NCBI GenBank assembly: GCA_038064355.1
Contig: JBBTTG010000019.1
Location: 1 to 53,936, forward strand
Length of the DNA stretch: 53,936 nt
DNA from: Patescibacteria group bacterium
Lineage (GTDB): Bacteria > Patescibacteriota > Patescibacteriia > GWA2-47-26
Direction: 5' to 3'
The notes under the pieces are model-generated. The model was not told where the DNA came from. It saw nothing but the letters and a program-made list of their open reading frames with translations, and made no database searches. The position numbers were made by a program, and so were the translations under genes. Of this stretch, positions 3,373 through 53,936 are shown in pieces (position 1 is the first letter of the stretch; every line of letters begins with the position of its first letter).

Positions 3373-4314
3373 TCAGTGTGAGCGTTTAGTATCTATAATT
3401 GCCAACCGATTAAGACCTGCAAGGTCTTTTTTTATTTTGATTTTGCAGGAGGGGAAATAGTGGCGGGCGAGGGTTTGAATGTCGTCGGATTGGTGGGGGC
3501 AAATTTCAAAAATTAAGTAAGTAGCGTGTAGGGAGTAGCGTGTAGAAAATTCCTTGAGCTGTTTCAAGAGGGTGCGGTAGTAGGTGAGGCCGTCTGGGCC
3601 GCCGTCCAGGGCGAGGCGGGGTTCATAGTGGCGCACGTCAGGCGGGGATTGCCGCCATTCGGAAGTTGGAAGATAAGGGAGGTTGGCGGTGATAAATAGC
3701 GTGTAGGGAGTAGCGTGTAGGGAGTAGACACGCAGGAAAGGCTCAAGAAGGTTGATATACAGGAAGGTGATATTTTTTTCGACGCCATGGAGGCGGGCGT
3801 TTTTGCGGGCGACGGTGAGTGCGGAGCGGGAGGCGTCGGTGGCGAAAAATTCAATTCCCCTCACCTCCATCCTCTCCCCGGAGGGGAGAGGGAGGGGAGA
3901 GGGGGCGAGGAGTTTGGCAAGAGCAATAATAACACACCCGCTACCGGTGCCGATGTCGATGATAACAGTTGGTAGCTTGTAGCTGGTAGCGAGTAGGTTG
4001 AGGGATTCTTTCACCATCAGTTCCGTCTCGGGGCGGGGAATGAGGACGCGCTTGTCCACGCAAAAATCCAATCCGTAAAATTCTTTGTGGCCGGTGATGT
4101 AGGCCACCGGCTCGTGCTTGGCGCGCCGTTTGATCAGTTTGCCGTAGGTAGCCGACTGTGAGCGTTGGAGATTGTATTCAGGATGAGCAAACAGTGTCTC
4201 CTTCGTGATTTTGAGTGTATGCGCGAGCAGTATTTCCGCATCGAGCGAGGCGGATTTGATTTTCGCAGATTGAAGACGGCTAGTGCCCCAGAGGAGAGCC
4301 TCTCGCGAGGTCAT
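3373..4314 (-). CDS. prmC: Release-factor glutamine methyltransferase PrmC/HemK, carrying several repeat-derived segments
   Basis: SAM motif IDIGTGSGCV. Other motifs are PRPETE and NLPY (in the NPPY position). It sits directly downstream of prfA. At 313 aa it is about 35 aa longer than typical PrmC. Confidence 0.9.
   Translation of the reverse strand: MTSREALLWGTSRLQSAKIKSASLDAEILLAHTLKITKETLFAHPEYNLQRSQSATYGKLIKRRAKHEPVAYITGHKEFYGLDFCVDKRVLIPRPETELMVKESLNLLATSYKLPTVIIDIGTGSGCVIIALAKLLAPSPLPLPSGERMEVRGIEFFATDASRSALTVARKNARLHGVEKNITFLYINLLEPFLRVYSLHATPYTLFITANLPYLPTSEWRQSPPDVRHYEPRLALDGGPDGLTYYRTLLKQLKEFSTRYSLHATYLIFEICPHQSDDIQTLARHYFPSCKIKIKKDLAGLNRLAIIDTKRSH
3518..3545. repeat. Heptanucleotide NNNGTAG tract (4 units) inside prmC
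   Basis: TAAGTAG CGTGTAG GGAGTAG CGTGTAG, translated on the minus strand as RYSLHATY. Confidence 0.85.
3693..3727. repeat. Heptanucleotide NNNGTAG tract (5 units) inside prmC
   Basis: TAAATAG CGTGTAG GGAGTAG CGTGTAG GGAGTAG, translated as VYSLHATPYTLF. It ends four codons upstream of the NLPY motif. Confidence 0.85.
3857..3908. repeat. Family-B GC-rich palindrome inside prmC
   Basis: CCTCTCCCCGGAGGGGAGAGG core, translated as PSPLPLPSGERMEVRG. It is about 85 percent identical by eye to the eno copy. Confidence 0.85.
3969..3996. repeat. Heptanucleotide NNNGTAG tract (4 units) inside prmC
   Basis: TTGGTAG CTTGTAG CTGGTAG CGAGTAG, translated as LATSYKLP just before the SAM-binding motif. Confidence 0.8.
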
Positions 4315-8015: not shown

Positions 8016-8339
8016 TCCCCGTCATGTTTTCGCGTTTCTCGCTCCGCTCTTGACAATTTTTCGTCCTCGTGATGATATATTGGTAAGAGTGTTCGTTCTG
8101 TCTGCATTGCATCTGGTTGGCGGCCTCTGAATATTCCCCATCCCCGCGACATCCCTCCCCTCCCCGCGTGGCGTGGTTCAGGAAGTTCATTGGTCGTCCA
8201 ACCGTTTTCTTGGCCGTATGGTCATAAGGTTTGTTTTTTCAACGAAAGCGTCGTAACCCCCCCCGCAAACGACATTCGCTGGAGAGACACTCACTGTGAC
8301 TATACTGGCCAACTTTTGTTTATAATCGAGTTGTAATTT

Positions 8340-8460
8340 GAGACCGTAGAAAAACGCGATCTGCTTTGTTGAAACCTGCGGTATTCGCTCACCGTACCTT
8401 TCAGTACGGCTCGCTCACTCCTCGGTTTCGCCTCGCATCTCATCGTTTTTCTACAGTCTC
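8340..8460. repeat. Family-D MITE-like element (121 bp)
   Basis: Identical by eye to 19068-19188. It has roughly 20 bp terminal inverted repeats AATTTGAGACCGTAGAAAAA / TTTTTCTACAGTCTCAA and a central hairpin CCGTAC-CTTTCA-GTACGG. Confidence 0.9.
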
Positions 8461-8941
8461 AATTTCGCGGTCATGATTTCGCAAAGTCCCTGTAGCCGGT
8501 TTTTTCGCTACCAGGATTTGCCCAAAATGTGGTGGACTGATACAACGATTTGACTTTCTCCGCCAGGTGTGGTTTACTGAGCTATAAGCTTCGTTCTGTT
8601 CGACAATCGATGAGGTTGGTGACCTGGCGGTTTCCGCAAAATCCCTCTCTCCTTTCTGTTCTACTCTGGCTCATGCTCTGGTTCATACATGGCAATTGCG
8701 GATCCGTCGGTCACCAACCTTTGCTCTTTTCGCTGGGCTGAAGCCTTGGAAAGAAAGATGAACCGAAAATTGATCCCCCCCTCGACATGCGGTTCGGTGA
8801 ATTCTTTCCCCAAGGTTTCGGCCTTTTTTATTTTTTGTCCAGAATACCCCATGGCTTGCCATGGGGATGAATGGAAACAAAAAATAAAACCCCGCCTTGG
8901 CGGGGTCATATTACCGCACCGCAAGCAGTGTGATAATTGAT

Positions 8942-19057: not shown

Positions 19058-19067
19058 TATGTAATTT

Positions 19068-19188
19068 GAGACCGTAGAAAAACGCGATCTGCTTTGTTGA
19101 AACCTGCGGTATTCGCTCACCGTACCTTTCAGTACGGCTCGCTCACTCCTCGGTTTCGCCTCGCATCTCATCGTTTTTCTACAGTCTC
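19068..19188. repeat. Family-D MITE-like element inserted between rpsB and tsf
   Basis: Identical by eye to 8340-8460. Confidence 0.9.
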
Positions 19189-19229
19189 AAATTGTTCCCC
19201 GCGAAATTTTTTTTGCAACATTTTTATAT

Positions 19230-21349: not shown

Positions 21350-21436
21350 TTGTTATCGCGAGTCCCGACGCTTCAGTCGGAACGTGGCGATCTCGAATCT
21401 CGGCGGGATTGCTTCGCTCCGCTCGCAATGACAGTC
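21350..21436. repeat. Family-C palindromic element, complete, intergenic
   Basis: TGTTATCGCGAGTCCCGACGC...GATTGCTTCGCTCCGCTCGCAATGACA. Confidence 0.85.
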
Positions 21437-21441
21437 TTGAT

Positions 21442-22707
21442 ATGAACGAATTTTTTCTCAAAACGTCCGAATTTGATTACCCTTTACCCGAGCGGCTCAT
21501 TGCGCAGAAGCCGTTTTCGCCGCGCGATTGTTGCCGTCTGCTTGTTTTGCATCGCGAGAGCGGGAAGATGGAACACCGGAAATTCTTTGATATTACGGCA
21601 TATCTTCGCGCGGGTGATGTGCTTGTGCTCAACGACAGCCGTGTTTTTAAAGCGAGACTTTTTGGAAGATTGTCATTGCGAGGAGCGGGGCGACGAAGCA
21701 ATCCCGTCCAAGTACAAGATCGCCGCGCCTCGCCTGCGGTGAAGCTCGCGATGACAGAGAAAAAGATAGAGGTATTTTTGTTGAGGGAAGTTGATAAAAC
21801 GGGAACATGGGAAGCGTTGGGAAATCCCGGGAAAAAATTAAAAGACGGGGTGAAGGTTTCTTTTTCAAAAACCGTCGAGTGTGAAGTCATCGGGAAGCGT
21901 GAAGGGAAATATCTGGTGCGTTTTAATATCCGCGGCTTGGCTTTTCAAAAGTTTTTGGCGCGGTATGGCCATGTGCCCATTCCTCCTTATATAGGGAAGG
22001 AGCCAAAAGACGCCGGAGACTATCAAACCGTCTATGCGCGGCAGAGCGGGTCAGTCGCCGCTCCGACGGCCGGGTTTCATTTCACGAAACGCCTTTTAAA
22101 AAAGATTGAGCGCATGGGAGTGGAGGTGCGATATATCACTTTGCATGTCGGATATGGAACATTTAAGCTCGTGAAATCCGAAGAGGTGAGCGCGCATAAG
22201 ATGGAAGAAGAGTGGGTGGAAATTTCGGCAGAGACCGCACGAGCGATTTCGCGCGCCAAGAGCGAGGGCAGGAGAGTGGTTGCCGTTGGGACGACGACAG
22301 TCAGAGCGCTTGAGGGATACTCCCTGATTAGTCATCGCGAGGAGCCGAAGGCGACGCGGCGATCCCGTACTCGAAACGAGATTGCTTCTCCGCCAAAGGC
22401 GGATCGCAATGACATTCTTTCGGCCTACTCCGGTCCTGTAAATATATTCATCTACCCCCACACCAAAAATTTTGGTGTGGGGGTAAACCCGGGCTATAAG
22501 TTTCAAATCGTTGACGCGCTGGTGACCAATTTTCACCTGCCAAAATCCACTCTGCTCGTGCTCGTTTCCGCCTTCGCGAAATCCCCCCTCTCCCTTGATG
22601 GGAGAGGGCAGGGTGAGGGTGTCATTTTGATCAAAACCGCCTACCAAGAGGCAATCAAGAAAAAATATCGCGTTTATTCGTTTGGAGATGCGATGATAAT
22701 TGTGTAG
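21442..22707 (+). CDS. queA: S-adenosylmethionine:tRNA ribosyltransferase-isomerase, with four in-frame palindromic insertions
   Basis: FDYPLPERLIAQKP, PIPPYI, YQTVYA, AAPTAGFHFT, VGTTTVRALE, VDALVTNFHLPKSTLLVLVSAF, YRVYSFGDAM. The start was trimmed to MNEFFLK. Confidence 0.93.
   Translation: MNEFFLKTSEFDYPLPERLIAQKPFSPRDCCRLLVLHRESGKMEHRKFFDITAYLRAGDVLVLNDSRVFKARLFGRLSLRGAGRRSNPVQVQDRRASPAVKLAMTEKKIEVFLLREVDKTGTWEALGNPGKKLKDGVKVSFSKTVECEVIGKREGKYLVRFNIRGLAFQKFLARYGHVPIPPYIGKEPKDAGDYQTVYARQSGSVAAPTAGFHFTKRLLKKIERMGVEVRYITLHVGYGTFKLVKSEEVSAHKMEEEWVEISAETARAISRAKSEGRRVVAVGTTTVRALEGYSLISHREEPKATRRSRTRNEIASPPKADRNDILSAYSGPVNIFIYPHTKNFGVGVNPGYKFQIVDALVTNFHLPKSTLLVLVSAFAKSPLSLDGRGQGEGVILIKTAYQEAIKKKYRVYSFGDAMIIV
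21671..21756. repeat. Family-C element inside queA
   Basis: TGTCATTGCGAGG...CTCGCGATGACA, translated as LSLRGAGRRSNPVQVQDRRASPAVKLAMT between the conserved LFGR and KKIEVF. Confidence 0.9.
22330..22414. repeat. Family-C element inside queA, read in a different frame from the first copy
   Basis: AGTCATCGCGAGG...GGATCGCAATGACAT, translated as ISHREEPKATRRSRTRNEIASPPKADRNDI. Confidence 0.9.
22455..22483. repeat. Perfect 14 bp-arm palindrome inside queA
   Basis: CCCCCACACCAAAA-A-TTTTGGTGTGGGGG, translated as PHTKNFGVGV inside the conserved IYP-GYKF segment. Confidence 0.85.
22581..22621. repeat. Family-B GC-rich palindrome inside queA
   Basis: CCCTCTCCC-TTGAT-GGGAGAGGG followed by CAGGGTGAGGG, translated as PLSLDGRGQGEG. 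Confidence 0.8.
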
Positions 22708-25104: not shown

Positions 25105-25125
25105 TCAGTAGACGGTAGTCTGTAT
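25098..25125. repeat. Heptanucleotide NNNGTAG tract spanning the SIMPL stop and the eno start
   Basis: CCTGTAG TCAGTAG ACGGTAG TCTGTAT. The TAG at 25102-25104 is the SIMPL stop, and the eno ATG begins at 25124. Confidence 0.85.
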
Positions 25126-26425
25126 GCGTATTCAAAGTATTCATGCCTACGAAATATTGGACTCGCGCGGGAATCCGACCGTGCGGGTGAGGGTGCGCCT
25201 GAAAGATGGTTCCGAGGGAGTCGCCTCGGTGCCTTCGGGCGCCTCGACCGGCGTGCATGAAGCGCTCGAACTTCGCGATGGAGACAAAAAGCGCTATGGC
25301 GGCAAGGGGGTGCAAAAGGCGTGCCGATTTGTGAATAAAATCATGGCTCCAAGGATTGCCGGTATGGCGGTGGAGGATCAACGAGTCATAGATGGTTTGA
25401 TGTGCGAGCTCGATGGGACAAAGCACAAGTCGCATTTTGGAGCTAATGCTATTTTGGGTATATCGCTTGCCTGCGCGCACGCGGGTGCGGCATCGGCCAA
25501 GCTCCCGCTTTATCGCTACCTCCGCAAAATCTACTCTCTCCACGCTACTCCATACAGGTTGCCCCACCCAATGATGAACATCCTTAATGGCGGACGGCAC
25601 GCGGATTGGAGTTTGGATTTGCAGGAGTGCATGATCGTGCCCGGGCAGAAGAAGTTTTCCGATCGCCTGCGTTGCGGCGCGGAGGTTTTTCATGCGTTGT
25701 ATGATATCTTGAAGAAACGAGGGCTTACGGTCGGTGTGGGCGACGAAGGGGGATATGCGCCGCGTTTAAAAAGCAATGAAGAGGCTTTTCGTCTCATCGG
25801 CGAGGCGGTGCAAGCGGCGGGATATATGTATGGAAAACAAGTGAAGGTGGCGATTGATGCCGCGGCCTCGGAGTTCTATAACGGAAAAACAGGACGTTAT
25901 GAGATGAATGTGGATAAGAAAAAATTGAGCTCGGATGAGCTGGGAAAACTCTATAGACGATGGATGAAGCAGTATCCGCTGATTTCCCTTGAGGATCCAT
26001 TTGCCGAAGATGATTGGGACGCGTGGAAGAAGTTTACTCATCAACTTTCCTCACCCTTCCCTCTCCCCAGAGGGGAGAGGATTAAGGTGAGGGGGAAAGG
26101 CACCATGATCGTTGGAGATGATCTTTTCGTAACGAATGTTGAGCGTTTAAAGAAAGGGATAGAAATGGGAGTGGGGAATGCCATTCTTATCAAGGTCAAT
26201 CAGATAGGCACGCTCTCCGAGACCATGGATGCGATTGATCTGGCGCGAAAACATGATTACCGCGTGATCCTTTCTCACCGCTCGGGTGAGACCGCGGATA
26301 CGACGATCGCGGATTTGGCCGTGGCGGTGAATGCCGACTACATCAAGACCGGAAGCCTCTCGCGCAGCGAACGCGTGGAAAAATATAATCGATTGCTGGA
26401 GATTGAGTCGGAAGTGAGTTTGTGA
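25124..26425 (+). CDS. eno: Enolase, with two repeat-derived segments
   Basis: ILDSRGNPTV, SGASTG, PMMNILNGG, GDEGGYAP, VGDDLFVTN, IKVNQIGTLSET, SHRSGETAD. Confidence 0.96.
   Translation: MRIQSIHAYEILDSRGNPTVRVRVRLKDGSEGVASVPSGASTGVHEALELRDGDKKRYGGKGVQKACRFVNKIMAPRIAGMAVEDQRVIDGLMCELDGTKHKSHFGANAILGISLACAHAGAASAKLPLYRYLRKIYSLHATPYRLPHPMMNILNGGRHADWSLDLQECMIVPGQKKFSDRLRCGAEVFHALYDILKKRGLTVGVGDEGGYAPRLKSNEEAFRLIGEAVQAAGYMYGKQVKVAIDAAASEFYNGKTGRYEMNVDKKKLSSDELGKLYRRWMKQYPLISLEDPFAEDDWDAWKKFTHQLSSPFPLPRGERIKVRGKGTMIVGDDLFVTNVERLKKGIEMGVGNAILIKVNQIGTLSETMDAIDLARKHDYRVILSHRSGETADTTIADLAVAVNADYIKTGSLSRSERVEKYNRLLEIESEVSL
25531..25558. repeat. Heptanucleotide tract (CTACNNN orientation) inside eno
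   Basis: CTACTCT CTCCACG CTACTCC ATACAGG, translated as YSLHATPYR. prmC carries the same peptide. Confidence 0.85.
26048..26097. repeat. Family-B GC-rich palindrome inside eno
   Basis: CCTCACCC-TTC-CCTCTCCCC-AGA-GGGGAGAGG-ATTAA-GGTGAGGG, translated as SSPFPLPRGERIKVRG before VGDDLFVTN. Confidence 0.9.
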
Positions 26426-26469
26426 TAGAGTGGAATAAGGAAACTAAAGTTCAAGAGTTCAATTTTTTA

Positions 26470-26793
26470 ATGTATAGTATGTCCATGGACCATGAATCAA
26501 ACCAAGAGATTTTGGAAGCAATCCATGAATTTTCTACGCATGTTGACACGCGCTTTGAAGACGTGAACAAGCGCTTTGAAGACGTGACTCAAGAGATAGG
26601 CAAGGCTAAAATTGACATCCTTGACGCCGTAGACGACAAGTTGGTCAATCTCAAGGGTGATTTGATTTTACTTATGCGCAGTGAAGATAAAAAACTTTTG
26701 TATTTGGTGCAGGTATTGAAAAACAAAAAAATCTTGACTGAAGAAGAAACCCGCAATATCTTGAAACTGCAACCGTTCCCGCAGGCTCTTTAG
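26470..26793 (+). CDS. Small coiled-coil protein, paralog of 34425-34829
   Basis: EILEAIHEFSTHVDTRFEDVNKRFEDV...LQPFPQ aligns with the 34.4 kb gene. The start is uncertain (26422-26485). Confidence 0.6.
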   Translation: MYSMSMDHESNQEILEAIHEFSTHVDTRFEDVNKRFEDVTQEIGKAKIDILDAVDDKLVNLKGDLILLMRSEDKKLLYLVQVLKNKKILTEEETRNILKLQPFPQAL

Positions 26794-26873
26794 GTTTTCG
26801 GTAAAAATTTCGAAGGGCGGAAAAATCATATTACCGCATACCGCACTGCTTGCGGCGCGGTAATTGATTTACG

Positions 26874-27030
26874 ATAGGACTTACGCACTTGACCTCTTTC
26901 TGTCATCCTCGCGAATGCGGGGATCCAGTATCCAGGCTCCTTTCCGAGGCCTGGATTCCCGCTGGAGTTTACCCCGCACTGGTGCGGGGCGGGAATGACA
27001 CCCCTAAATGGGTTTTTGCGTAAGTTCTAT
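26874..27030. repeat. Composite element: family-E termini enclosing a family-F palindrome
   Basis: Termini are ATAGGACTTACGCACTTGACC ... TGCGTAAGTTCTAT. The interior is TGTCATCCTCGCGAATGCGGGGATCCAG...GCGGGGCGGGAATGACA. Confidence 0.8.
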
Positions 27031-27133
27031 ACGAGCTACATCGACGAACGCGTGGAAAAATATAATCGATTGCTCGTGTTTGTTGTTGTTTTGTTTTTTT
27101 GGGAAAACCTGATACAGTGGGCGTACTTATTTT

Positions 27134-34244: not shown

Positions 34245-34377
34245 GAGACTGTAGAAAAACTCTTAAAAATCACTTCCTTCTGTCATTCCCGCGAAAGCGG
34301 GAATCCAGAAACCACTTCAAACCTGGATCCCCGCTTTCGCGAGGATGACAGAAAGAGGTCAAGTGCGAAGTCCTATA
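34245..34377. repeat. Chimeric element: D-type left end, family-F core, E-type right end
   Basis: GAGACTGTAGAAAAA..., then TGTCATTCCCGCGAAAGCGGGAATCCAG...GAGGATGACA, then ...GGTCAAGTGCGAAGTCCTATA. Confidence 0.8.
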
Positions 34378-34424: not shown

Positions 34425-34829
34425 ATGACGGAAAATACGCCGCCGACCAGCCAGGAAATTTTGCCGACCATTCAGGATGTTCTTGAGGCCGTAAACGAGT
34501 TTGCCAGTCATGTAGACAAGCGGTTTTCGGATATAGACAAGCGGTTTTCGGATATAGACAAACAGTTTTCGGGTATAGACAAACAGTTTTCGGGTATTCG
34601 CGAAGAGATGGCGACAAAGAGTGATCTCAACCGTTTTAAGCTAGACTTGATTGATGTCATAGATGAGAAGAACGCCGATCTCAAGGCTGATCTTACTATC
34701 CTTATGAGAAAAGAAGATAAGAAGGTGGTGAGTTTGATTGATCTTTTGCGAAAAAAATCCGTCATTGATAATACAGAGGCGGCAAAGATTCTTGGTATGG
34801 ATCCGTTTCCGCAGGATGTGGTTATATAA
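34425..34829 (+). CDS. Small coiled-coil protein, paralog of 26470-26793
   Basis: EILPTIQDVLEAVNEFASHVDKRFSDIDKRFSDIDKQFSGIDKQFSG...MDPFPQ. Confidence 0.65.
   Translation: MTENTPPTSQEILPTIQDVLEAVNEFASHVDKRFSDIDKRFSDIDKQFSGIDKQFSGIREEMATKSDLNRFKLDLIDVIDEKNADLKADLTILMRKEDKKVVSLIDLLRKKSVIDNTEAAKILGMDPFPQDVVI
34512..34595. repeat. 21 bp tandem repeat x4 inside the coiled-coil gene
   Basis: GTAGACAAGCGGTTTTCGGAT / ATAGACAAGCGGTTTTCGGAT / ATAGACAAACAGTTTTCGGGT x2, encoding the heptad DKRFSDI / DKQFSGI. Confidence 0.95.
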
Positions 34830-34851: not shown

Positions 34852-37800
34852 ATGCGAAAAGGAGTCATTATAGCAAAAAGTCTGCTCTGGGCGGCATCTT
34901 TTGTGTTTTTTGTCGGTATACTCGGTGCGCGTGCCGGTGTACTCACTCCATCTGCCGCTCCCGGAGCCACCATGCGCACCTTAACCGAGATTTTTGACGC
35001 GCTTGCCGGCACCTATGATGCTACGTCGCAATCCGCATCGGCAAATGGCAATGTGGTGCAACAGCTCAAATATATCGCCACTCTTGGCATTCAGAATATC
35101 TACACGAATTCCTCATCGGCCACCATCACGACCGCCAGTGGCAAGGATGTAACTTTTAGTTTGGCGGATACCGCCACGGATTCAGACATCATCGTGGATA
35201 TTTTGGGCACGGGTAACACCTTTGAGGTGCGCGACACCGGCACCGCCGTATTCACTGTTGCCGATGGCGGAATAAGTACCGTTACCGGATCGCTTGGGCT
35301 TGCTCCAAACGGTGCGGGAGCCGGGGCGACCAGCCCCGTGCGGTTTTATGAGCTTGCCGCCGGTGGGTCCAATTACATTGCCTTCAAGGCTCCCGATGCC
35401 ATTGCCGCAAATGTAACTTGGATATTGCCCGATGCCGATGGCGCGAGCGGACAATCGCTCTCGACGAATGGCAGCGGAACATTGAGCTGGACTACTCCAT
35501 CGGGAGCGGGCGATATTACCGCCGTTGGTTCCATGATTACCTCCGCCGTTTTTGCCGATACCACCGCTGACGATGATTGGCTCGGCTTGGGCGCCGCGGC
35601 CGGACGCATTGAGTTTGACGATCAGGCGACTGATGAAGTGAATATTTTGAATGCCAGCGTGGGTATCGGCACCAGCACCCCGGGTTCAACGCTTGACGTA
35701 ACCGGTACGGTCAATATCAGTTCAACGCTTACGGTTGGCGGAACGACTACGTTTGACGGAGTGCAGATTATAGATAATACGGGTGTGGAAGCGTTTCTCG
35801 TCCGTCAAAATGCTGACGCGGGCGATGTATTTACAGTAAACACCACCGCTCCCTCTGTAACGCTTGGGACGAGTGTTTCCCTCACCACCACCGGCGGCGG
35901 TTCTCTCACGGGAACATGGACCGACCTTGGTTCCGTAACCACCGTAGACATCAACGGAGGCACGATTGACGGTGTAACGATCGGAGGATCATCCGCCGGC
36001 GCCGGTACATTTACAACCCTTCAGAGCACGCCCTCAAAGACCGTCGCCTCGGCAACCGGCGCTGTCTATGACGGCTTCACCATTCCCGCCGCCACAATGA
36101 CGGCTTCGGGAAGCACGGCCATCACCACGGCAACCGGATTTAATCTGATGAATGTATCCATCCCGAACATCGCCACCGCGGCCAATGTAACCAATTCGTC
36201 TACGGTGTACATCGCGGGCGCTCCGACCATTTCCGGAGGCGGGGCGATTACCAATGCCTACGCCCTCTGGGTGGACGCGGGAGAATCCCGTTTTGACGGG
36301 AATCTTGAGTTTGGAACCGGTGTAGCCATCACGGCCGGTGATTATATGATTGGCCGCGATGCCGATGGCACAAACCAGCTTCATTTCAATGTGCCAACCG
36401 GAGCGTCAATGGAATGGAGCATCAACGATGTTTCAAGAATGGTGATGAATAGCTCCGGGCAATTGGAACTGCGTCAATTTTCTACTGACGCGGTTGCCAA
36501 TCAACTCACTGTACGAAAAGCGCGTGGAACGGAAGGATCCCAAACGATTGTCGCAAATAATGATAACCTCGGTCTCGTTGAATTTCAAGGTTATGATGGA
36601 GCAGGCACTCATCAGCCAGCCGCTAGGATTCTTGCAAGAGTGAATGGAACTCCCGGAGCGGGAGATATGCCCGGAATCTTATCCTTGCAGACAACCCTAG
36701 ACGGCGCGGCTGCTCCAACGGAAAGGATGACCATTGATAACGGTGGAAACTTCGTCTTTACGCAGGGAGCGCAAGCATCCGGCTCGCCCACCGGCCTCAC
36801 CTTCACCGGCGGAGCGCATACCACGCTTGCCGCATCAACTGAAGCAACTGATATCAACTTCAATTTAGCCAGAACAGTCCAATTTGCCACAGGAGCTCTT
36901 GCGAGCCAGAGAGCAATGTTAATTCAAGCTCCCACCTATGCTTTTGCGGGCGCATCCACACTCGCAAGCGCGTCAACATTGGTGCTTACCGGCGCTCCCC
37001 AAGCAGGAACCAACGCGACTATCACAGCGACCTATGGATTGGTTGTCAATTCAAATACGTACGCGAGTAGCGAGGCTTATCAGGCAAACATCGGAATGCC
37101 GGGAATTTCTAACGGAATTGGAGCCGTGGCAAACCGTTTTGGGTTATCAATTACCGGCTCTAATACTTCGCTCGGGAACCAAACTGCCGCCTTAAGTTCT
37201 CTTATAGGGTTGTTTATCGATCCGGGAACATACGTATCCACCACAAATACAAGAACGGTAACGCAAGCCACTGGTTTAGTGGTCGGTCCTCCCTCGGCGG
37301 GAGCGAATGTTGCGATGACCACGGTGGCGTCTGGAGCGTTCGGAGACAATGCAACCCATGTCAGCGCCGCCGGGTTTAATTATTCGGATATCATCACTGG
37401 CGGCAATACCTTAACGCTTACCGGCACCACCAATGTTACCAGCACACCCGGCGTATCCAGCGTCAATGTCGGGCAGATTACGGTTACAGATTCTTCCGCC
37501 GTGACGGTGAATAATTCCGCGAGTGTTTATATCGCCGACGCTCCCATTGCGGCTGGTTCAGTAACCCTAACAAATGCGTATTCCTTATGGGTGGATGCGG
37601 GAGCGGCGAGATTGGATGGCACGCTGGCCTTGAATGATGCGGCAACTCTTACAAAAGACGGTATCGCCGCCACATCAACCGATGGTTTCGTACTCCAGAA
37701 TACGACCGATTCCACCGTAGGCGTTCCAAACCAATGGTCGCCTCGCGCGAGACAACACGCCGAGGTTTGGGATACCGACGGGAGCAACGATACATTTGAT

Positions 37801-39786
37801 TTCATACAGGAGGTAAAGGGCACCAGCGCGGCAACGACTTTGGCCGACTTCACCTTGTCCATGTCGAAAAACGGAGGGGCGTATAACGATTTGATTTCTG
37901 TTGATGAAGCGGGAAACCTGGCGATTCTGAACCAGCCGGCACAAATCCAATTCGCCAATGGCCAGTATTTTCAGGATAATAACAACGGAGGATTGAATAT
38001 TTATTCCCCGGCGGCATTGAATTTCTCTCTTGGGGCAAGCTATCCGAATACGAGTCCAATTTGGGGAGTCACGGGCGGCACAAGGACGGCCGGCGCGGCG
38101 GACGACAAAGGTTTCAGCTTTACCAATACGCTTAATGATTCCTCCACCGCCGGTGGAGAATCCTATACGGCGTTCTTTGTAAACATCACCGAAACCAACA
38201 AGACGGGCTGGCCAACGGTAAACCTGATGGATTTGCAGGTTGGCGCGGTGAGCAAGTTTCTTGTGAATGACGCGGGAGGTATAACAAGCGCAGGCGGACA
38301 AACATCAATCACACCCACTTTTTCCGTTGCTTCCGCCGCCGGGGCGGTCTATAACGGCCTCACTATTCCCGCCACAACGATGACATTGTCGGGTTCAACT
38401 GGTGTTACCACCGCAACAGGATTCAATCTGATAAACATTGCAATTCCCAATATCGCCACGACTGATGCGAACGCCGATGTTACCAATACGGCAACGGTTT
38501 ACATTGCCGGCGCTCCGACCATTTCCGGAGGCGGGGCGATTACGAATTCCTACTCTTTGTGGGTTGATGCGGGAACGGTGAGGTTTGATGGAGCGGTTAT
38601 TATGGGCGGACTTGCTTCGGGCACGGGCGGCGGCACCTATGATGCTATTTGTTTGAATACCGCCGACAATGCGCTTACCGTGAATACCAACGGAGACGAT
38701 TGTGTTGTTTCTTCGCGACGGTTTAAAGAGAATATTGCGAATCTTGATCTTGGTCTCTCGTTCATTAACGCTTTGACTCCAAGGCAGTTTAATTACATCG
38801 GAGAAGGCGATTCGCGCGTCGGATTCATCGCTGAAGAAGTGGCGGCAATTGATTCACGTCTCATGTTTTATGAAAATGATGGAGTTACCGCGCGCGGTGT
38901 CAGGTATCAGGATATGACAGCCGTGCTTACAAAAGCGGTGCAGGAACAGCAGGCGCAGATACAGAAGTTAACGTTAGATTTACAGGGGTTATTGAATGGA
39001 GGCGGGTCATCCTCGTCAGGCGGGTCGGCCTATACCGCCGGATATTGGTCGCTTGACGACAAGGGGAACCTGGTCGCGGATAAGGCGATTGGATTGAAGG
39101 TTTCCACGAGCAAGGGTGAGCGGACGCTGATGGCGCTTCTTGGCGCCAAAGCGGAGCTTATGCTTTCCGGAAGCTCGGAGCTGGTGGGCGGAGAGAGGAG
39201 GATTTATTTTCAAGAGTTTGATGAGACCTTCGCCGAGCTCGTTTCCGCGACTACACCGTTTAAGGTCTTACTTACACCCACTTCGTCCACACAAGGTCTC
39301 TATATTGCCGAAAAAATCAAAGAACTGGTTGAGGGTCGGGAGCGTTATGTTGGTTTTCGTGTAAAGGAGCAGGGAAGCGGCACATCTTCCGGTACATTTG
39401 ATTGGGTGGTGGTGGCGGTGCGCGAGGGTTTTGAAGGGGATGCGCCGGTGGTGCCGGCAGTGGCGGCGCCGATAGCAAACCCCTCACCCCAACCCTTTCC
39501 CACAGGGGGAGAGGGAGACGCGACAGAACAATCGCCAGTTGAACCAGTCGCGCCCGTAGCTCCGGTTGAGCAGGCGGCTCCTGTTGTTCCCGTTGAACCG
39601 GTAGCGCCCATTGAGCCGATAACTCCGGTTGAACCCGCACCTGTTGCTCCGTCTGCTCCCGTTGCACCACCGATTGTTCCCGAAGTGCCAGTCGAGCCCA
39701 TAGCACCAGTGGAACCGGCGGCTCCTATTGAAGAACCTGTCGCTCCGATTGAACCACCGGCAACCGCTGAACCCCCAGCGACTTAA
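34852..39786 (+). CDS. Giant secreted/anchored tail-fibre-like surface protein (1644 aa) with an internal peptidase-S74 intramolecular-chaperone domain
   Basis: - AAGGAGG SD upstream.
- N-terminal TM/signal segment.
- Tail-fibre-like motif [39 protein letters not shown].
- Three roughly 90-aa modules ending in [27 protein letters not shown].
- S74-like segment [12 protein letters not shown]...VGFIAEEV...[24 protein letters not shown] at about 38710-38975.
- Pro-rich PVEPxAP tail. Confidence 0.8.
39478..39520. repeat. Family-B-like GC-rich palindrome inside the giant gene
   Basis: CCCTCACCCCAACCCTTTCCCACAGGGGGAGAGGGAG, translated as [14 protein letters not shown]. Confidence 0.6.
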
Positions 39787-40171: not shown

Positions 40172-40206
40172 GGGAAATGACGAAAGGCAAATGTCGAATA
40201 AAATGG

Positions 40207-40267
40207 TTGTCATTCCAGCGGAAGCGGGAATCCAGGCCTGGACCCCGCATCAAGTGCGGGGTGACAA
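40207..40267. repeat. Family-F palindromic element
   Basis: TTGTCATTCCAGCGGAAGCGGGAATCCAGGCCTGGACCCCGCATCAAGTGCGGGGTGACAA. Confidence 0.8.
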
Positions 40268-40278
40268 GAAGGGCAAGG

Positions 40279-42522
40279 GTGAAAAATTTAAAAAGCAATG
40301 TGACACATTTTAAAAGGCATTGGATATTAGATATTCGTTATTTTGGTAAGGCGGCTTTTTTCGTTTTTGCCCTATTTTTCGCCTTGCCGGTTCTCGCCGT
40401 CGACACATCCACCGGCGGGATTGATTCCACGAACAAATACGCATGGGGAGAAAACATCGGATGGTTGAATTTTGGCACGAGCGAGGGCGCGGTGTCCGTG
40501 AGTGACTCCGCTCTCTCCGGTTATGCCTGGGGCGAAAATATCGGTTGGATCAGTCTCAATTGCTCCAATACAAGCTCATGCGCGACCGTGAATTATAAAG
40601 TGGCAAATAATGGCGCAGGTACTCTTTCCGGCTATGGATGGGGTGAGAATATCGGATGGGTGAATTTTAGTCCGACATACGGCGGCGTGACTATCGACGG
40701 AAACGGGAATTTTTTCGGCTATGCCTGGGGAGAAAATATCGGGTGGATTGTTTTTAACTGCTCGACGACAAGCTCGTGCGGCACGGTAAGCTATAAAGTG
40801 AATACGGCGTATCGCACGGGAGGCGAGCGATCACAATGCAACAACGCGGCGGATGATGATGGAGATGGCGCCATAGATTATCCGGCGGATACGGGATGCG
40901 AATCTCTTGATGATACATTGGAATTGAATCCCGGTGGCGGTGGGGTTTTTGTTTCCACCGGCGGGGGAGGGATATCCCCGGTTGCGCCCGCGGAAATTTT
41001 ACCTCCTCCGTCCGCAGTTCCACCGGCATCGGAAGTGACAGCCCCGCCTCAACCCGCAGCGCCTCCGGCTGTTTCGCCTCCCGCGCCGCCATTTGAGGTT
41101 CAACCGTTGTTCCCGCCGGCTCTTCCAGAGGCGTCGCCATTTTCCATTTTTGATCGGATCGGGGAGATTATTCGCAAGGCTCTACCTTTCTCCAAAAAAG
41201 AAGAGCCGTCTCTTTTTACCCCCCTCTTGCCGCGGGAATTGCCGGTAGCGCCTCCGGATTCGCTTGCATTACAATGGCCATTAATCCGTAAAGATTCAAT
41301 AAACAGTTTGGTATTTTTGCCGCCGCTAAAGGTGTTGATCTACGCGCCGAGTTTCAAATTCATTGATCCGCGGCCGGTGTCCAAGCTTGCCGATCTTCCC
41401 TTGCCGCCGGAGGTGCAAGTGCTCGCGGAGAAATTTCCGGCCGTGCGTGAAACATTCAAAAAAGTCGGCATCGCGCGTTTTAATGATTTGGAGAAATTGC
41501 AATCAGCGCGTCTCGTTCTTCCCGGATTGAACGATCTCTTGGGGGTTGCCCCCATCGGAGATTTTGGGAAAAGCTTGCCCATAAACGCGCTCACCCCGTC
41601 GCTCAAAATGCAACTGCCCTCGGAGGTGGTGTTTGCCAAGACCGCCGAGCAGGCGATTGATTTTAGAATCGGTCTTCGCGTGACGGATCAAGGAGAAGTG
41701 CGCCAGCGCATTGTGACGATTGTCAATAAACCCCTGAATCTATCCATAAAACCGGATGGTAGCGCAAAGACAGTGAGGGGATATTTGGTGTTTCGGTCCA
41801 AAAATCCGGTGCCAATGAGCACAATGGATTTGCATCTCGCCTCGCTGATGGGACGGTTAATGTTCGCGCGTCCGGTGTTCGCGCAAGCGCAGGATGTGCC
41901 GGTGCGAGTGGAGGAGCAATTGGTGCTTTTGGAGTTTGAATACACGGATTTGGACGGGGACGGTATTTATACGGCGACCATAGAGACGCCCGGGGTGGAT
42001 GGTGAATATGAAATTATTACGGTGATTGATTATACTTCGCCGGCAAAAGGCATCAAAGCGGTGCGTCTCATCACCGTCATAGATCCGGAGGGATATGTGT
42101 ATGAGGAGATTGTTGGAGGCAAGGAAGCGCGCATCCCGGATGCCCGGGCGAGTCTTTTTTGGAAAAATCCAGGAACAGATGCCTATGAGCTCTGGCCGGC
42201 GTATGAGTTTGTGCAGGAAAATCCGCAGACCACCGATACCAGCGGGCGATATTCTTTTCTTGTGCCGAAAGGCGTCTATATTCTTGGGGTTCAAGCAAAT
42301 GGGTATAAGGCATACCGCAGTGAACCGTTTGCTGTCGTGGAGGGAAGGGGTGTGCATATCAATGTGCGTTTGAAGCCGGAATATTGGTTGGAGCGCTTGC
42401 CGGATGCGAAAATACTCCTTCTTGTTGCTTTGATTATTCTGATTGTCTATAATTTTTATCGTGATCGTATGAGGGAAAAGCGAGCGAAAAAAATGCCGCC
42501 GTCCATCACTGGCGAGTTGTAA
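40279..42522 (+). CDS. Surface protein with five YAWGENIGW repeats, a Pro-rich linker, a CarboxypepD_reg-like domain and a C-terminal TM anchor
   Basis: The start was moved to the in-frame GTG at 40279, because the ORF-track N-terminus is a translated family-F repeat. The signal-like segment is FFVFALFFALPVLA. The repeat motif Y[AG]WGENIGW[ILV].[FL] occurs 5 times. Also present: SGRYSFLVPKGVYILGVQANGYKAY and a C-terminal TM segment. Confidence 0.7.
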   Translation: MKNLKSNVTHFKRHWILDIRYFGKAAFFVFALFFALPVLAVDTSTGGIDSTNKYAWGENIGWLNFGTSEGAVSVSDSALSGYAWGENIGWISLNCSNTSSCATVNYKVANNGAGTLSGYGWGENIGWVNFSPTYGGVTIDGNGNFFGYAWGENIGWIVFNCSTTSSCGTVSYKVNTAYRTGGERSQCNNAADDDGDGAIDYPADTGCESLDDTLELNPGGGGVFVSTGGGGISPVAPAEILPPPSAVPPASEVTAPPQPAAPPAVSPPAPPFEVQPLFPPALPEASPFSIFDRIGEIIRKALPFSKKEEPSLFTPLLPRELPVAPPDSLALQWPLIRKDSINSLVFLPPLKVLIYAPSFKFIDPRPVSKLADLPLPPEVQVLAEKFPAVRETFKKVGIARFNDLEKLQSARLVLPGLNDLLGVAPIGDFGKSLPINALTPSLKMQLPSEVVFAKTAEQAIDFRIGLRVTDQGEVRQRIVTIVNKPLNLSIKPDGSAKTVRGYLVFRSKNPVPMSTMDLHLASLMGRLMFARPVFAQAQDVPVRVEEQLVLLEFEYTDLDGDGIYTATIETPGVDGEYEIITVIDYTSPAKGIKAVRLITVIDPEGYVYEEIVGGKEARIPDARASLFWKNPGTDAYELWPAYEFVQENPQTTDTSGRYSFLVPKGVYILGVQANGYKAYRSEPFAVVEGRGVHINVRLKPEYWLERLPDAKILLLVALIILIVYNFYRDRMREKRAKKMPPSITGEL

Positions 42523-42919: not shown

Positions 42920-43004
42920 AATCCCGTCATTCTCCCCACCAATCCCGTCATTCCCGCGCAGGCGGGAATCCAGGCATAGACCCCCGCTTTCGCGAGGGTG
43001 ACAG
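42920..43004. repeat. Family-F element with a partial duplication of its left end
   Basis: AATCCCGTCATTCTCCCC, then AATCCCGTCATTCCCGCGCAGGCGGGAATCCAGG...CGCGAGGGTGACAG. Confidence 0.8.
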
Positions 43005-43013
43005 ATTAACTTC

Positions 43014-43194
43014 TATAGGACTTACGCGCTTCCGCCCGGGAGTCCTGTAATTGTGGAACTTCCCATGGCGGAAGCCACAGGGGTTTGACCAATCTCTTCG
43101 TTAAAAGGCTCTGCTCTTGCTCGCCGTAGCTCTACTACGCCTCGCAACATCCTCGCCTTTTGCCTCGACCTTGGTCAAACGCGTAAGTCCTATT
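43014..43194. repeat. Family-E MITE-like element (about 180 bp) with perfect 14 bp terminal inverted repeats
   Basis: ATAGGACTTACGCG ... CGCGTAAGTCCTAT. Its first 66 bp recur at 53871-53936 with two mismatches. Confidence 0.9.
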
Positions 43195-53870: not shown

Positions 53871-53936
53871 TATAGGACTTCCGCGCTTCCGCCCAGGAGT
53901 CCTGTAATTGTGGAACTTCCCATGGCGGAAGCCACA
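53871..53936. repeat. Family-E element, left part (cut by the window end)
   Basis: TATAGGACTTCCGCGCTTCCGCCCAGGAGTCCTGTAATTGTGGAACTTCCCATGGCGGAAGCCACA matches 43014-43079 with two mismatches. Confidence 0.9.

Follow-up and report, generated by a model that had tools for sequence, protein, structure and literature searches.

How can one GC-rich palindrome come to be translated inside four unrelated genes? The question is raised by a contig of a Patescibacteria metagenome-assembled genome (MAG), JBBTTG010000019.1 of assembly GCA_038064355.1, whose 53,936 nt are the window analysed here, and in which the palindrome lies in eno, prmC, queA and a giant open reading frame (ORF). An earlier note on this DNA had treated it as a family belonging to this genome ("family B"). 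We find instead that it is an already described motif, known as BoxC, PIT or TMECO, that spans many bacterial phyla. We put at roughly 80% the probability that the four sites are BoxC/PIT/TMECO copies inserted in frame into Patescibacteria coding DNA, where they are tolerated as selfish or neutral passengers.

The four copies and the BoxC family

Hoyne and Maher came upon the BoxC repeat of the 1990s again and called it the PIT element; the name TMECO followed (Holder et al. 2015, PMC4666352). It is tied to local genome instability, and circular dichroism and nuclear magnetic resonance (NMR) show that the E. coli motif folds stably in vitro into an intrastrand triplex of the purine-motif type (Holder et al. 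2015, PMC4666352). The published consensus is CCCTCNCCC-N3-6-GGGNGAGGG-N3-GGGNGAGGG, and the strict pattern has been reported from 262 proteobacterial genomes. MG1655 has 23 copies that are "always located intergenically", and no association with a transposase, integrase, phage or plasmid was found (PMC4666352). We were led to the "boxC" literature, and thereby to the identification, because Enterobacteriaceae were among the genome matches described below; a literal search of paper text for GGGGAGAGG gave 551 hits, all of them unrelated and mostly primers and human G-rich DNA.

The motif consists, on one strand, of a C-rich arm, a loop, the complementary G-rich arm, a second loop and a second G-rich arm that mirrors the first. 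Such a strand would fold into a hairpin onto which the third arm would fold back, giving an intrastrand purine-motif triplex of G·G:C, A·A:T and T·A:T triads. Each 9-nt arm was scored for Watson-Crick pairs and for allowed purine-motif triads, and the scores are given with the copies:

26048-26092, plus strand: eno insertion, 45 nt, in frame, T + CCTCACC-CTTC-CCTCTCCCC-AGA-GGGGAGAGG-ATTAA-GGTGAGG, encoding SSPFPLPRGERIKVR
26060-26094, plus (coding) strand: complete class II triplex motif in eno, with C-arm at 26060-26068, AGA, G-arm at 26072-26080, ATTAA and mirror G-arm GGTGAGGGG at 26086-26094; 9/9 Watson-Crick pairs, 9/9 triads
26048-26081, minus strand: partial second triplex motif in eno, with the central hairpin common to both strands and third strand GGGTGAGGA; 8/9 pairs, 8/9 triads
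3856-3906, minus strand: prmC element, in frame, encoding APSPLPLPSGERMEVRG, with complete motifs on the minus strand (3857-3891) and the plus strand (3871-3904) that have one hairpin in common; 9/9 pairs and 9/9 triads on each strand
22582-22620, plus strand: queA insertion, 39 nt, in frame, encoding SPLSLDGRGQGEG, with the one-sided motif CCCTCTCCC-TTGAT-GGGAGAGGG-CA-GGGTGAGGG at 22586-22619; 9/9 pairs, 9/9 triads
39481-39515, minus strand: degraded, one-sided motif of the giant ORF, CCCTCTCCC-CCTGT-GGGAAAGGG-TTG-GGGTGAGGG, its G-rich strand being the template strand while the peptide is read from the coding strand; 8/9 pairs, 8/9 triads

All four sites could be read back from the window with the sequences and peptides first described for them, the peptides lying within long ORFs (eno SSPFPLPRGERIKVRG, prmC PSPLPLPSGERMEVRG, queA PLSLDGRGQGEG and, likewise by translation, that of the giant ORF). 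The proposal that one core is shared by the four genes holds in part, since the exact 9+3+9 core is found in eno and prmC, whereas queA has CCCTCTCCC/GGGAGAGGG arms around a 5-nt loop and the giant gene has a mismatch in one arm. Similarly, the CCTCACC/GGTGAGG flanks are both intact in eno, but read CCTCACC/GGCGAGG in prmC and are reduced to GGTGAGG in queA and to CCTCACC in the giant gene. The approximately 85% DNA identity reported between eno and prmC is borne out by 32 identical positions of 37 (86%) over the core. All five differences fall in the two loops and the arms are identical, conservation sitting in the DNA arms and not in the loops. The pattern CCTCTCCC-N2-8-GGGAGAGG has three matches in the window (0.00 expected from shuffles), and the 9-nt core with up to three mismatches has four in 54 kb (0.01 expected), making it both multicopy and dispersed. 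The sequence GGTGAGGG occurs eight times in the window against 1.07 expected, with four of the eight inside the four elements, and a relaxed scan of the window found no further copy of the BoxC-type subfamily.

Set against the published consensus, the queA arms are an exact CCCTCNCCC / GGGNGAGGG / GGGNGAGGG, including the T of the T·A:T triad. The 9-nt C-rich arm, CCCTCNCCC in form, is exactly CCCTCTCCC in queA and the giant gene; eno and prmC have CCTCTCCCC, in which this run is displaced by one base. First loops measure 3 nt in eno and in prmC and 5 nt in queA and in the giant gene, within the 3-6 nt of the consensus, and arm pairing (9/9, 9/9, 9/9 and 8/9) never exceeds one mismatch. A mirror third arm of GGGNGAGGG form accounts for all nine triads in eno (plus strand), prmC (both strands) and queA and for eight of nine in the giant gene, and the T of GGTGAGG stands at the position of the T·A:T triad in the E. 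coli motif. The complete eno 35-mer is CCTCTCCCCAGAGGGGAGAGGATTAAGGTGAGGGG. Judged by sequence and architecture, the family identity is established.

The resemblance to BoxC/PIT/TMECO (Bergler 1992; Hoyne & Maher 2000; Holder et al. 2015, PMC4666352) extends from the three-arm layout, the near-identical arms CCCTCTCCC / GGGAGAGGG / GGGTGAGGG and the A·A, G·G, T·A centre to the variable loops, dispersal on either strand, presence or absence between close relatives and lack of a known mobility gene. Unlike the E. coli copies, the four present ones are in ORFs and in frame, and they belong to a Patescibacteria MAG. In eno and prmC the arms stand one base off the consensus, and the opposite-strand motifs share a single hairpin, whereas E. 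coli inverted pairs consist of two separate motifs.

Describing the element as a palindrome with outer arms was therefore only partly apt: a nested palindrome suits the two-sided eno and prmC copies, but the outer arm GGTGAGG corresponds to the reverse-Hoogsteen third strand, a mirror of the G-arm. As a general model we rejected the simple nested Watson-Crick palindrome, which ViennaRNA does draw for eno and prmC but which accommodates neither the one-sided copy in queA nor most copies elsewhere; eno and prmC resemble it because the motif on each strand shares one central hairpin. A G-quadruplex reading of the G-rich half was also set aside, based on the 18 imino signals and triplex seen by NMR for the E. 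coli motif, as distinct from the variants studied here (PMC4666352). Predicted hairpin energies (ViennaRNA) range from -30 to -39 kcal/mol for the copies as RNA, and for the eno motif hairpin the values are -32 kcal/mol (RNA) and -15.7 kcal/mol (DNA). RNA does not fold into purine-motif triplexes (PMC4666352), and therefore the hairpin alone would be expected at the mRNA level. A search of the whole window against Rfam at gathering thresholds returned no match, leaving a described RNA family unsupported.

Insertion sites and reading frames

By a greedy ORF estimate, approximately 87% of the window is coding. The genes that hold the copies are as follows:

25124-26425, plus strand: eno, enolase, 433 aa; E = 3.7e-133 against solved enolases
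3373-4314, minus strand: prmC/hemK, release-factor glutamine methyltransferase, 313 aa, identified by alignment with solved orthologues and domain search
21439-22707, plus strand: queA, Pfam Queuosine_synth at 1.7e-114 and alignment with solved structures; start uncertain, the ORF opening at 21409
34852-39786, plus strand: giant ORF, 1644 aa, with a Peptidase_S74 (endosialidase chaperone) domain

The eno, prmC/HemK and queA genes are genuine host genes, and in each an in-frame palindromic insert is missing from orthologues, at the DNA level for eno and queA and at the protein level for prmC. The closest enolase (P0002) is 82% identical, 17 residues shorter and located on a syntenic contig (eno, gpmI, PAP2, nucleotidyl transferase, yceG), and in a DNA alignment with this sister contig (L001) its gene lacks exactly the 45 nt at 26048-26092 of the window. 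The eno peptide is found in none of 13 enolases of the candidate phyla radiation (CPR), comprising P0002 and twelve more, nor in any solved enolase; because the twelve further CPR enolases and all solved enolases are without the insert, the filled state is the derived one. Likewise, a syntenic Logan contig (L297), in which queA is followed by pgk as in the window, has a queA without exactly the 39 nt at 22582-22620, and the 13 residues that these encode are missing from solved QueA and from the nearest full-length QueA (approximately 60% identical). The peptides appear as gaps in solved-structure alignments (15 residues in eno, 16-17 in prmC and 13 in queA), the prmC peptide lying opposite a gap in both T. 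maritima and E. coli HemK. Predicted junction peptides include SSPFPLPR and, after the insert, GTMIVGDDLFVTNVER.

For prmC, the closest relative in the database is 58% identical, and at the loop concerned most relatives either lack an insert or have a short, unrelated one. One relative of 58% identity (P0122, contig L175) carries its own copy in the same loop, within the ORF and with the DNA motif intact (CCCCCTCACCCTCCCCTCTCCCCATGGGGAGAGGGTGTCCGAAGGACGGGTGAGGGGG). The two copies could be either one old insertion or two events in a tolerant loop. The comparison of sister genomes for empty sites that the earlier note had proposed thus succeeded at the DNA level for eno and at the protein level, in most relatives, for prmC. 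That note had also pointed to distant orthologues sharing the peptide without the DNA palindrome as grounds for doubt, and the P0122 copy, with its intact motif, is not of that kind. Its central conclusion, that an inserted element and not shared protein ancestry explains the pattern, is upheld by the exact 45-nt and 39-nt empty sites, the differing frames, the occurrence in both orientations and the arm-level conservation of the DNA. The eno and queA junctions showed no target duplication of 4 nt or more, in alignments whose flanks are 66-85% identical.

Both measured insertions are multiples of three nucleotides. The G-rich strand has a single built-in stop, the TGA in GGTGAGG, which closes one of the three frames, and the complementary strand (CCCCTCACC) is open in all three. 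Direct reading of the eno coding strand finds its other two frames shut by that TGA and by the TAA of the ATTAA loop. In queA the frame used in eno had been said to contain TGA, and indeed two TGA codons occur there, the frame actually used and one other being open. The frame used reads the hairpin as LS..GRG, for which a 3-nt second loop would give GGG-TGA-GGG; the 2-nt loop (CA) moves the third arm to GGT-GAG-GGT, and the frame stays open. Selection for open frames, as the note had suggested, agrees with the lengths in multiples of three, the effect of the TGA and the short queA loop, but we infer it from four copies only.

In an AlphaFold2 model of the enolase with a mean predicted local distance difference test (pLDDT) score of 85, insert residues 310-325 fall below 50 and form the only long low-confidence segment of the barrel. 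They make up a loop between the helix at 298-309 and the strand at 328-331, which carries the GDD motif, and the insert is thus predicted to be a disordered, surface-type loop that leaves the fold intact. TIM-barrel loops of this kind face away from the active site. In prmC and queA, the same loops of relatives hold other, unrelated short inserts, which suggests that these sites are tolerant. Among CPR relatives, the prmC loop after the GxGxG motif and the QueA loops hold inserts that differ by lineage (for example KNWKLEIGNWK, PLTKGGRGG and LTPSLSP...GRG), and such loop "hot spots" seem to receive inserts of several repeat families. Within conserved proteins, peptides such as PLPxGERxxVRG, PSPxxGEGxGEG and LTPxLSPxGRG are better regarded as the footprint of the BoxC-type DNA element than as a protein motif.

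Pre-formed copies were thus inserted into the coding DNA of this lineage, as shown for eno and queA. The G/C-rich sequence being nearly stop-free, copies in frame in tolerant surface loops would be retained by selection and read as Pro/Gly/Arg-rich linkers, such as PLPxGERxxVRG or SPLSxxGRGxGEG. We infer that they are selfish or neutral passengers and not functional modules, kept only where harmless. Our best guess for their spread is that an existing copy would be copied into single-stranded DNA at replication or repair, in a process that depends on structure, needs no transposase and would proceed by template switching or gap repair. The exact empty sites, of 45 and 39 nt and with no visible duplication, are material for solving the BoxC insertion mechanism.

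Distribution, comparison with known repeats and rival explanations

Public collections were scanned with the pattern CCTCTCCCCNNNGGGGAGAGG-N2-8-GGTGAGG, which has 25 fixed bases. It matched 51 IMG/VR viral contigs and at least 120 stretches of GTDB genomes from many phyla; the hosts among the matches listed include Xanthobacter, Dyella, Rhodanobacter, Pseudomonas/Stutzerimonas, Enterobacter, Leclercia, Azospirillum and Sphingomonas as well as Acidobacteriota, Planctomycetota (including an anammox MAG), Nitrospirota, Chloroflexota, Omnitrophota, Rokubacteria and a Clostridia MAG. The motif therefore extends, nearly unchanged, from the Proteobacteria of the main earlier reports to Patescibacteria and many other phyla. 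Its presence in viral contigs may be noted beside the report that in E. coli no phage association was seen (Holder et al., PMC4666352). Most sampled copies elsewhere comprise the hairpin and a 3' GGGTGAGGGG without the 5' CCTCACC. The two-sided form is found in at least 120 metagenome stretches, with 43-47 nt between its outer ends and, among the matches listed, a median contig GC content of 0.48; one metagenome copy (L267) differs from the eno copy by 2 nt, which both fall in the first loop. A 44-nt motif taken from a sampled Enterobacteriaceae copy was present in all 5,426 complete E. coli genomes, at a median of 18 places in each. Its best E. coli match is in the flgF-flgG spacer, which we tried as an empty site and rejected, as other strains have a longer, rearranged spacer and no clean gap.

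Copies inside genes also occur elsewhere, in 17 of the 187 evaluable genome and viral sites (9%, a lower bound) and in 15 of the 98 two-sided metagenome sites (15%). Coding status was called from a spanning ORF and a codon-position GC heuristic that missed at least two Pfam-confirmed cases (VgrG and HrpA), and both percentages are rough. The Pfam-confirmed hosts include IleS in Sphingomonas (an inverted pair), HrpA in Dyella (an array), VgrG in Stutzerimonas, Cmk in a Deltaproteobacteria MAG, MiaB in Omnitrophota, CheA, and a metallophosphoesterase with the copy at an identical site in two contigs. In IMG/VR contig L025 (11609-13654), a phage/plasmid AAA_25 (primase/helicase-like) ORF, likewise confirmed by Pfam, contains three in-frame BoxC-type copies within a duplicated segment. 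The motif can thus sit in frame in essential genes, and does so in five of five copies in the present lineage (the four in the window and that of contig L175) as compared with approximately 9-15% in other samples. Were 15% the general rate, five of five intragenic copies would have a probability of about 8e-5, and by this measure the Patescibacteria lineage stands out for intragenic placement; five of five is, nevertheless, no departure from random placement in a genome that is 87% coding. In the literature that we searched, no description of BoxC-type motifs inside genes was found. What is new here is therefore the in-frame intragenic copies, the Patescibacteria host, the two-sided form and the two clean empty sites, the element itself being already known.

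Several other classes of small repeat invite comparison. Rickettsia palindromic elements (RPE) were reportedly described by Ogata et al. in 2000 and 2002. Like these (PMC2229807) and the protein-coding palindromes of Wolbachia, the present copies are palindromic, probably selfish, in frame in conserved genes and missing from orthologues; as with RPE, they are tolerated in loops and several families inhabit one reduced genome (PMC2229807). However, RPE are 105-146 bp, AT-rich, specific to Rickettsia and without a mirror-repeat or triplex, whereas the present copies are 34-48 bp, belong to a type found across phyla and have no sequence similarity to them. REP/BIME sequences are alike in their 20-40 bp size, G+C-rich imperfect palindrome, high copy number and lack of a visible target duplication, but are tied to RAYT, have species-specific sequences and bear a 5' GT[AG]G. 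No such tetranucleotide is present beside the palindrome in our copies, the flanks of all four being unrelated gene sequence, and the motif is nearly identical across phyla. Finally, bacterial MITEs (miniature inverted-repeat transposable elements) fused to ORFs (ERIC/IRU, the 107-bp Correia element and YPAL; Delihas 2007/2008) are likewise small and non-autonomous, have open frames and sometimes lie in genes, but they are approximately 100-200 bp long, with terminal inverted repeats and TA or other target duplications, whereas inverted ends are seen only in our two-sided copies and no duplication is visible.

These parallels bear on the strongest rival account, in which the element would be a nested-palindrome mini-transposon of REP or MITE type whose hairpin is moved in trans by a RAYT or an IS200/IS605-type HUH enzyme, its triplex potential being incidental. 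Single-strand HUH transposition of the IS200/IS605 kind leaves no target duplication. That agrees with the eno and queA junctions, as do the strong predicted hairpins and the 7-9-bp inverted repeats (CCCCTCACC...GGTGAGGGG) at the ends of two-sided copies. Yet the left arm is absent from queA and from most copies elsewhere, and terminal inverted repeats are thus not a constant feature, the 3' arm mirrors the G-arm with a T exactly where the T·A:T triad would require it, and no transposase, integrase, phage or plasmid association was reported by Holder et al. (PMC4666352), which together make this account unlikely. Alternatively, the copies might be useful to their hosts, as mRNA hairpins that pace translation or set an RNase site, as hotspots of replication or recombination, or as an exapted Pro/Gly/Arg-rich surface peptide. 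The perfect arms in three of four copies, the stable RNA hairpins and the sharing of a prmC loop copy by two proteins only 58% identical could be so explained, but the copies sit in unrelated host genes, at differing positions and in differing frames and orientations, close relatives manage without the insert, the eno insert is predicted to be disordered, and the unrelated inserts in the same loops of relatives speak for tolerance over function. Since PIT elements in addition have neither promoter nor terminator activity in E. coli (PMC4666352), we regard usefulness as very unlikely.

Shared protein ancestry or a convergent protein motif, with the DNA symmetry a by-product, could conceivably be read from the pattern P-L-P-x-G-E-R-x-x-V-R-G common to eno and prmC. 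It is made extremely unlikely by the exact empty sites, by the use of other frames or the other strand of the same DNA in queA and the giant gene, and by the mostly non-coding location of that DNA elsewhere. Chimeric joins or collapsed repeats are no more credible as a source of the copies. Repeats can mislead assemblers, but no specific sign of an artefact was found, the host genes are in frame on both sides and align end to end with solved orthologues, a second, independent assembly (GCA_964365935.1) has an identical eno, element included, and the motif is present in isolate genomes, complete E. coli chromosomes among them.

Against the BoxC reading itself, as formulated above, several points must be counted. 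The 3-nt second loop of the consensus is found only in the giant gene, the loop being 5 nt in eno, 4 or 5 in prmC and 2 in queA; it varies in other genomes too, but there the search pattern itself permitted 2-8 nt. All four copies, and that of contig L175, lie within ORFs, in contrast to the always intergenic E. coli copies. In vivo, and likewise in double-stranded DNA, no stable triplex was seen (Holder et al. 2015, PMC4666352), and the triplex, which in these variants is predicted, may be irrelevant and the hairpin alone decisive. At the level of flank identity available for eno and queA, a target duplication of 1-3 nt may have escaped notice, and translation of the inserts is judged from the intactness of the ORFs. 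The copy-in machinery is a guess, to no component of which the present data point, and the base of the argument is four copies from one 54-kb window. It is a far broader conjecture, and one that we consider distinctly unlikely, that BoxC-type elements are domain-wide, transposase-independent mobile DNA whose own fold directs precise copy-in at single-stranded DNA, and that, with several further hairpin mini-elements of the same genes, they have come to supply loop insertions regularly to essential proteins in small, gene-dense genomes such as those of Patescibacteria. If true, filled and empty gene pairs would be a direct readout of a new insertion mechanism.

Other repeats in the window

A different, CCCCC-type triplex-like motif, CCTTCCCCCTTTGAAAAAGGGGGATTGAGGGGGAT, lies at 2938-2970, between ORFs ending at 2490 and 3373. 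It has a hairpin and a G-run as third arm, and passes a threshold of at least 8/9 pairs and at least 8/9 triads. A prmC relative (P0140) has the peptide PLTKGGRGG, whose composition resembles this motif at the peptide level, in the loop that holds the BoxC-type copy of prmC.

The queA gene contains a second, unrelated in-frame palindromic insertion at 22456-22488 (arms 22453-22468 / 22470-22485), a perfect palindrome with 16-nt arms, TACCCCCACACCAAAA-A-TTTTGGTGTGGGGGTA, that is read PHTKNFGVGVN and is missing both from the syntenic L297 and from other QueA proteins. Compared with solved QueA there are two further inserts, LSLRGAGRRSNPVQVQDRRASPAVKLAMT and EPKATRRSRTRNEIASPPKADRNDIL (21670-21756 and 22342-22419), built on palindromes of the type GTCATTGCGAGGAGCG...CGCGATGAC, the first of them being common to a 78%-identical relative (P0241). 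The inserts of different repeat families in queA therefore number at least four. Another peptide, YSLHAT(PY), is found twice in prmC (3520-3537 and 3709-3726) and once in eno (25532-25555). In prmC it rests on the directly repeated decamer CTACACGCTA (TAGCGTGTAG on the plus strand, at 3522, 3536, 3697, 3711 and 5818). CPR relatives have Y-x-L-x-x-T variants at these places, which may represent another intragenic repeat family.

Downstream of eno, the last 34-38 nt of the gene (26368-26405) recur about 677 bp further on (27045-27082), just before gpmI. The intervening stretch (26406-27044), which contains a 123-aa ORF without a Pfam match (26422-26793), has the look of an inserted element with a long direct repeat of its target on either side; the eno-gpmI spacer of L001 is approximately 85 bp. 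A family based on GTCATTCCCGCGAAAGCGGGAATCCAG is found at 2790-2827, 34272-34359 (I1), 40209-40246 and 42947-42984, the second of these forming an inverted pair with 37-nt arms and one copy lying at the 5' end of a 781-aa ORF (40177-42522). A dispersed 134-nt repeat occurs at 2626-2759, 8332-8465 and 19060-19193 (and 629-648), with 99% identity between the copies at 8332 and 19060, and a 66-nt repeat at 43014-43079 and 53871-53936, with 97% identity and the second copy reaching the end of the window. Upstream of the giant ORF, at 34510-34593, are four tandem copies of the 21-nt unit ATGTAGACAAGCGGTTTTCGG.

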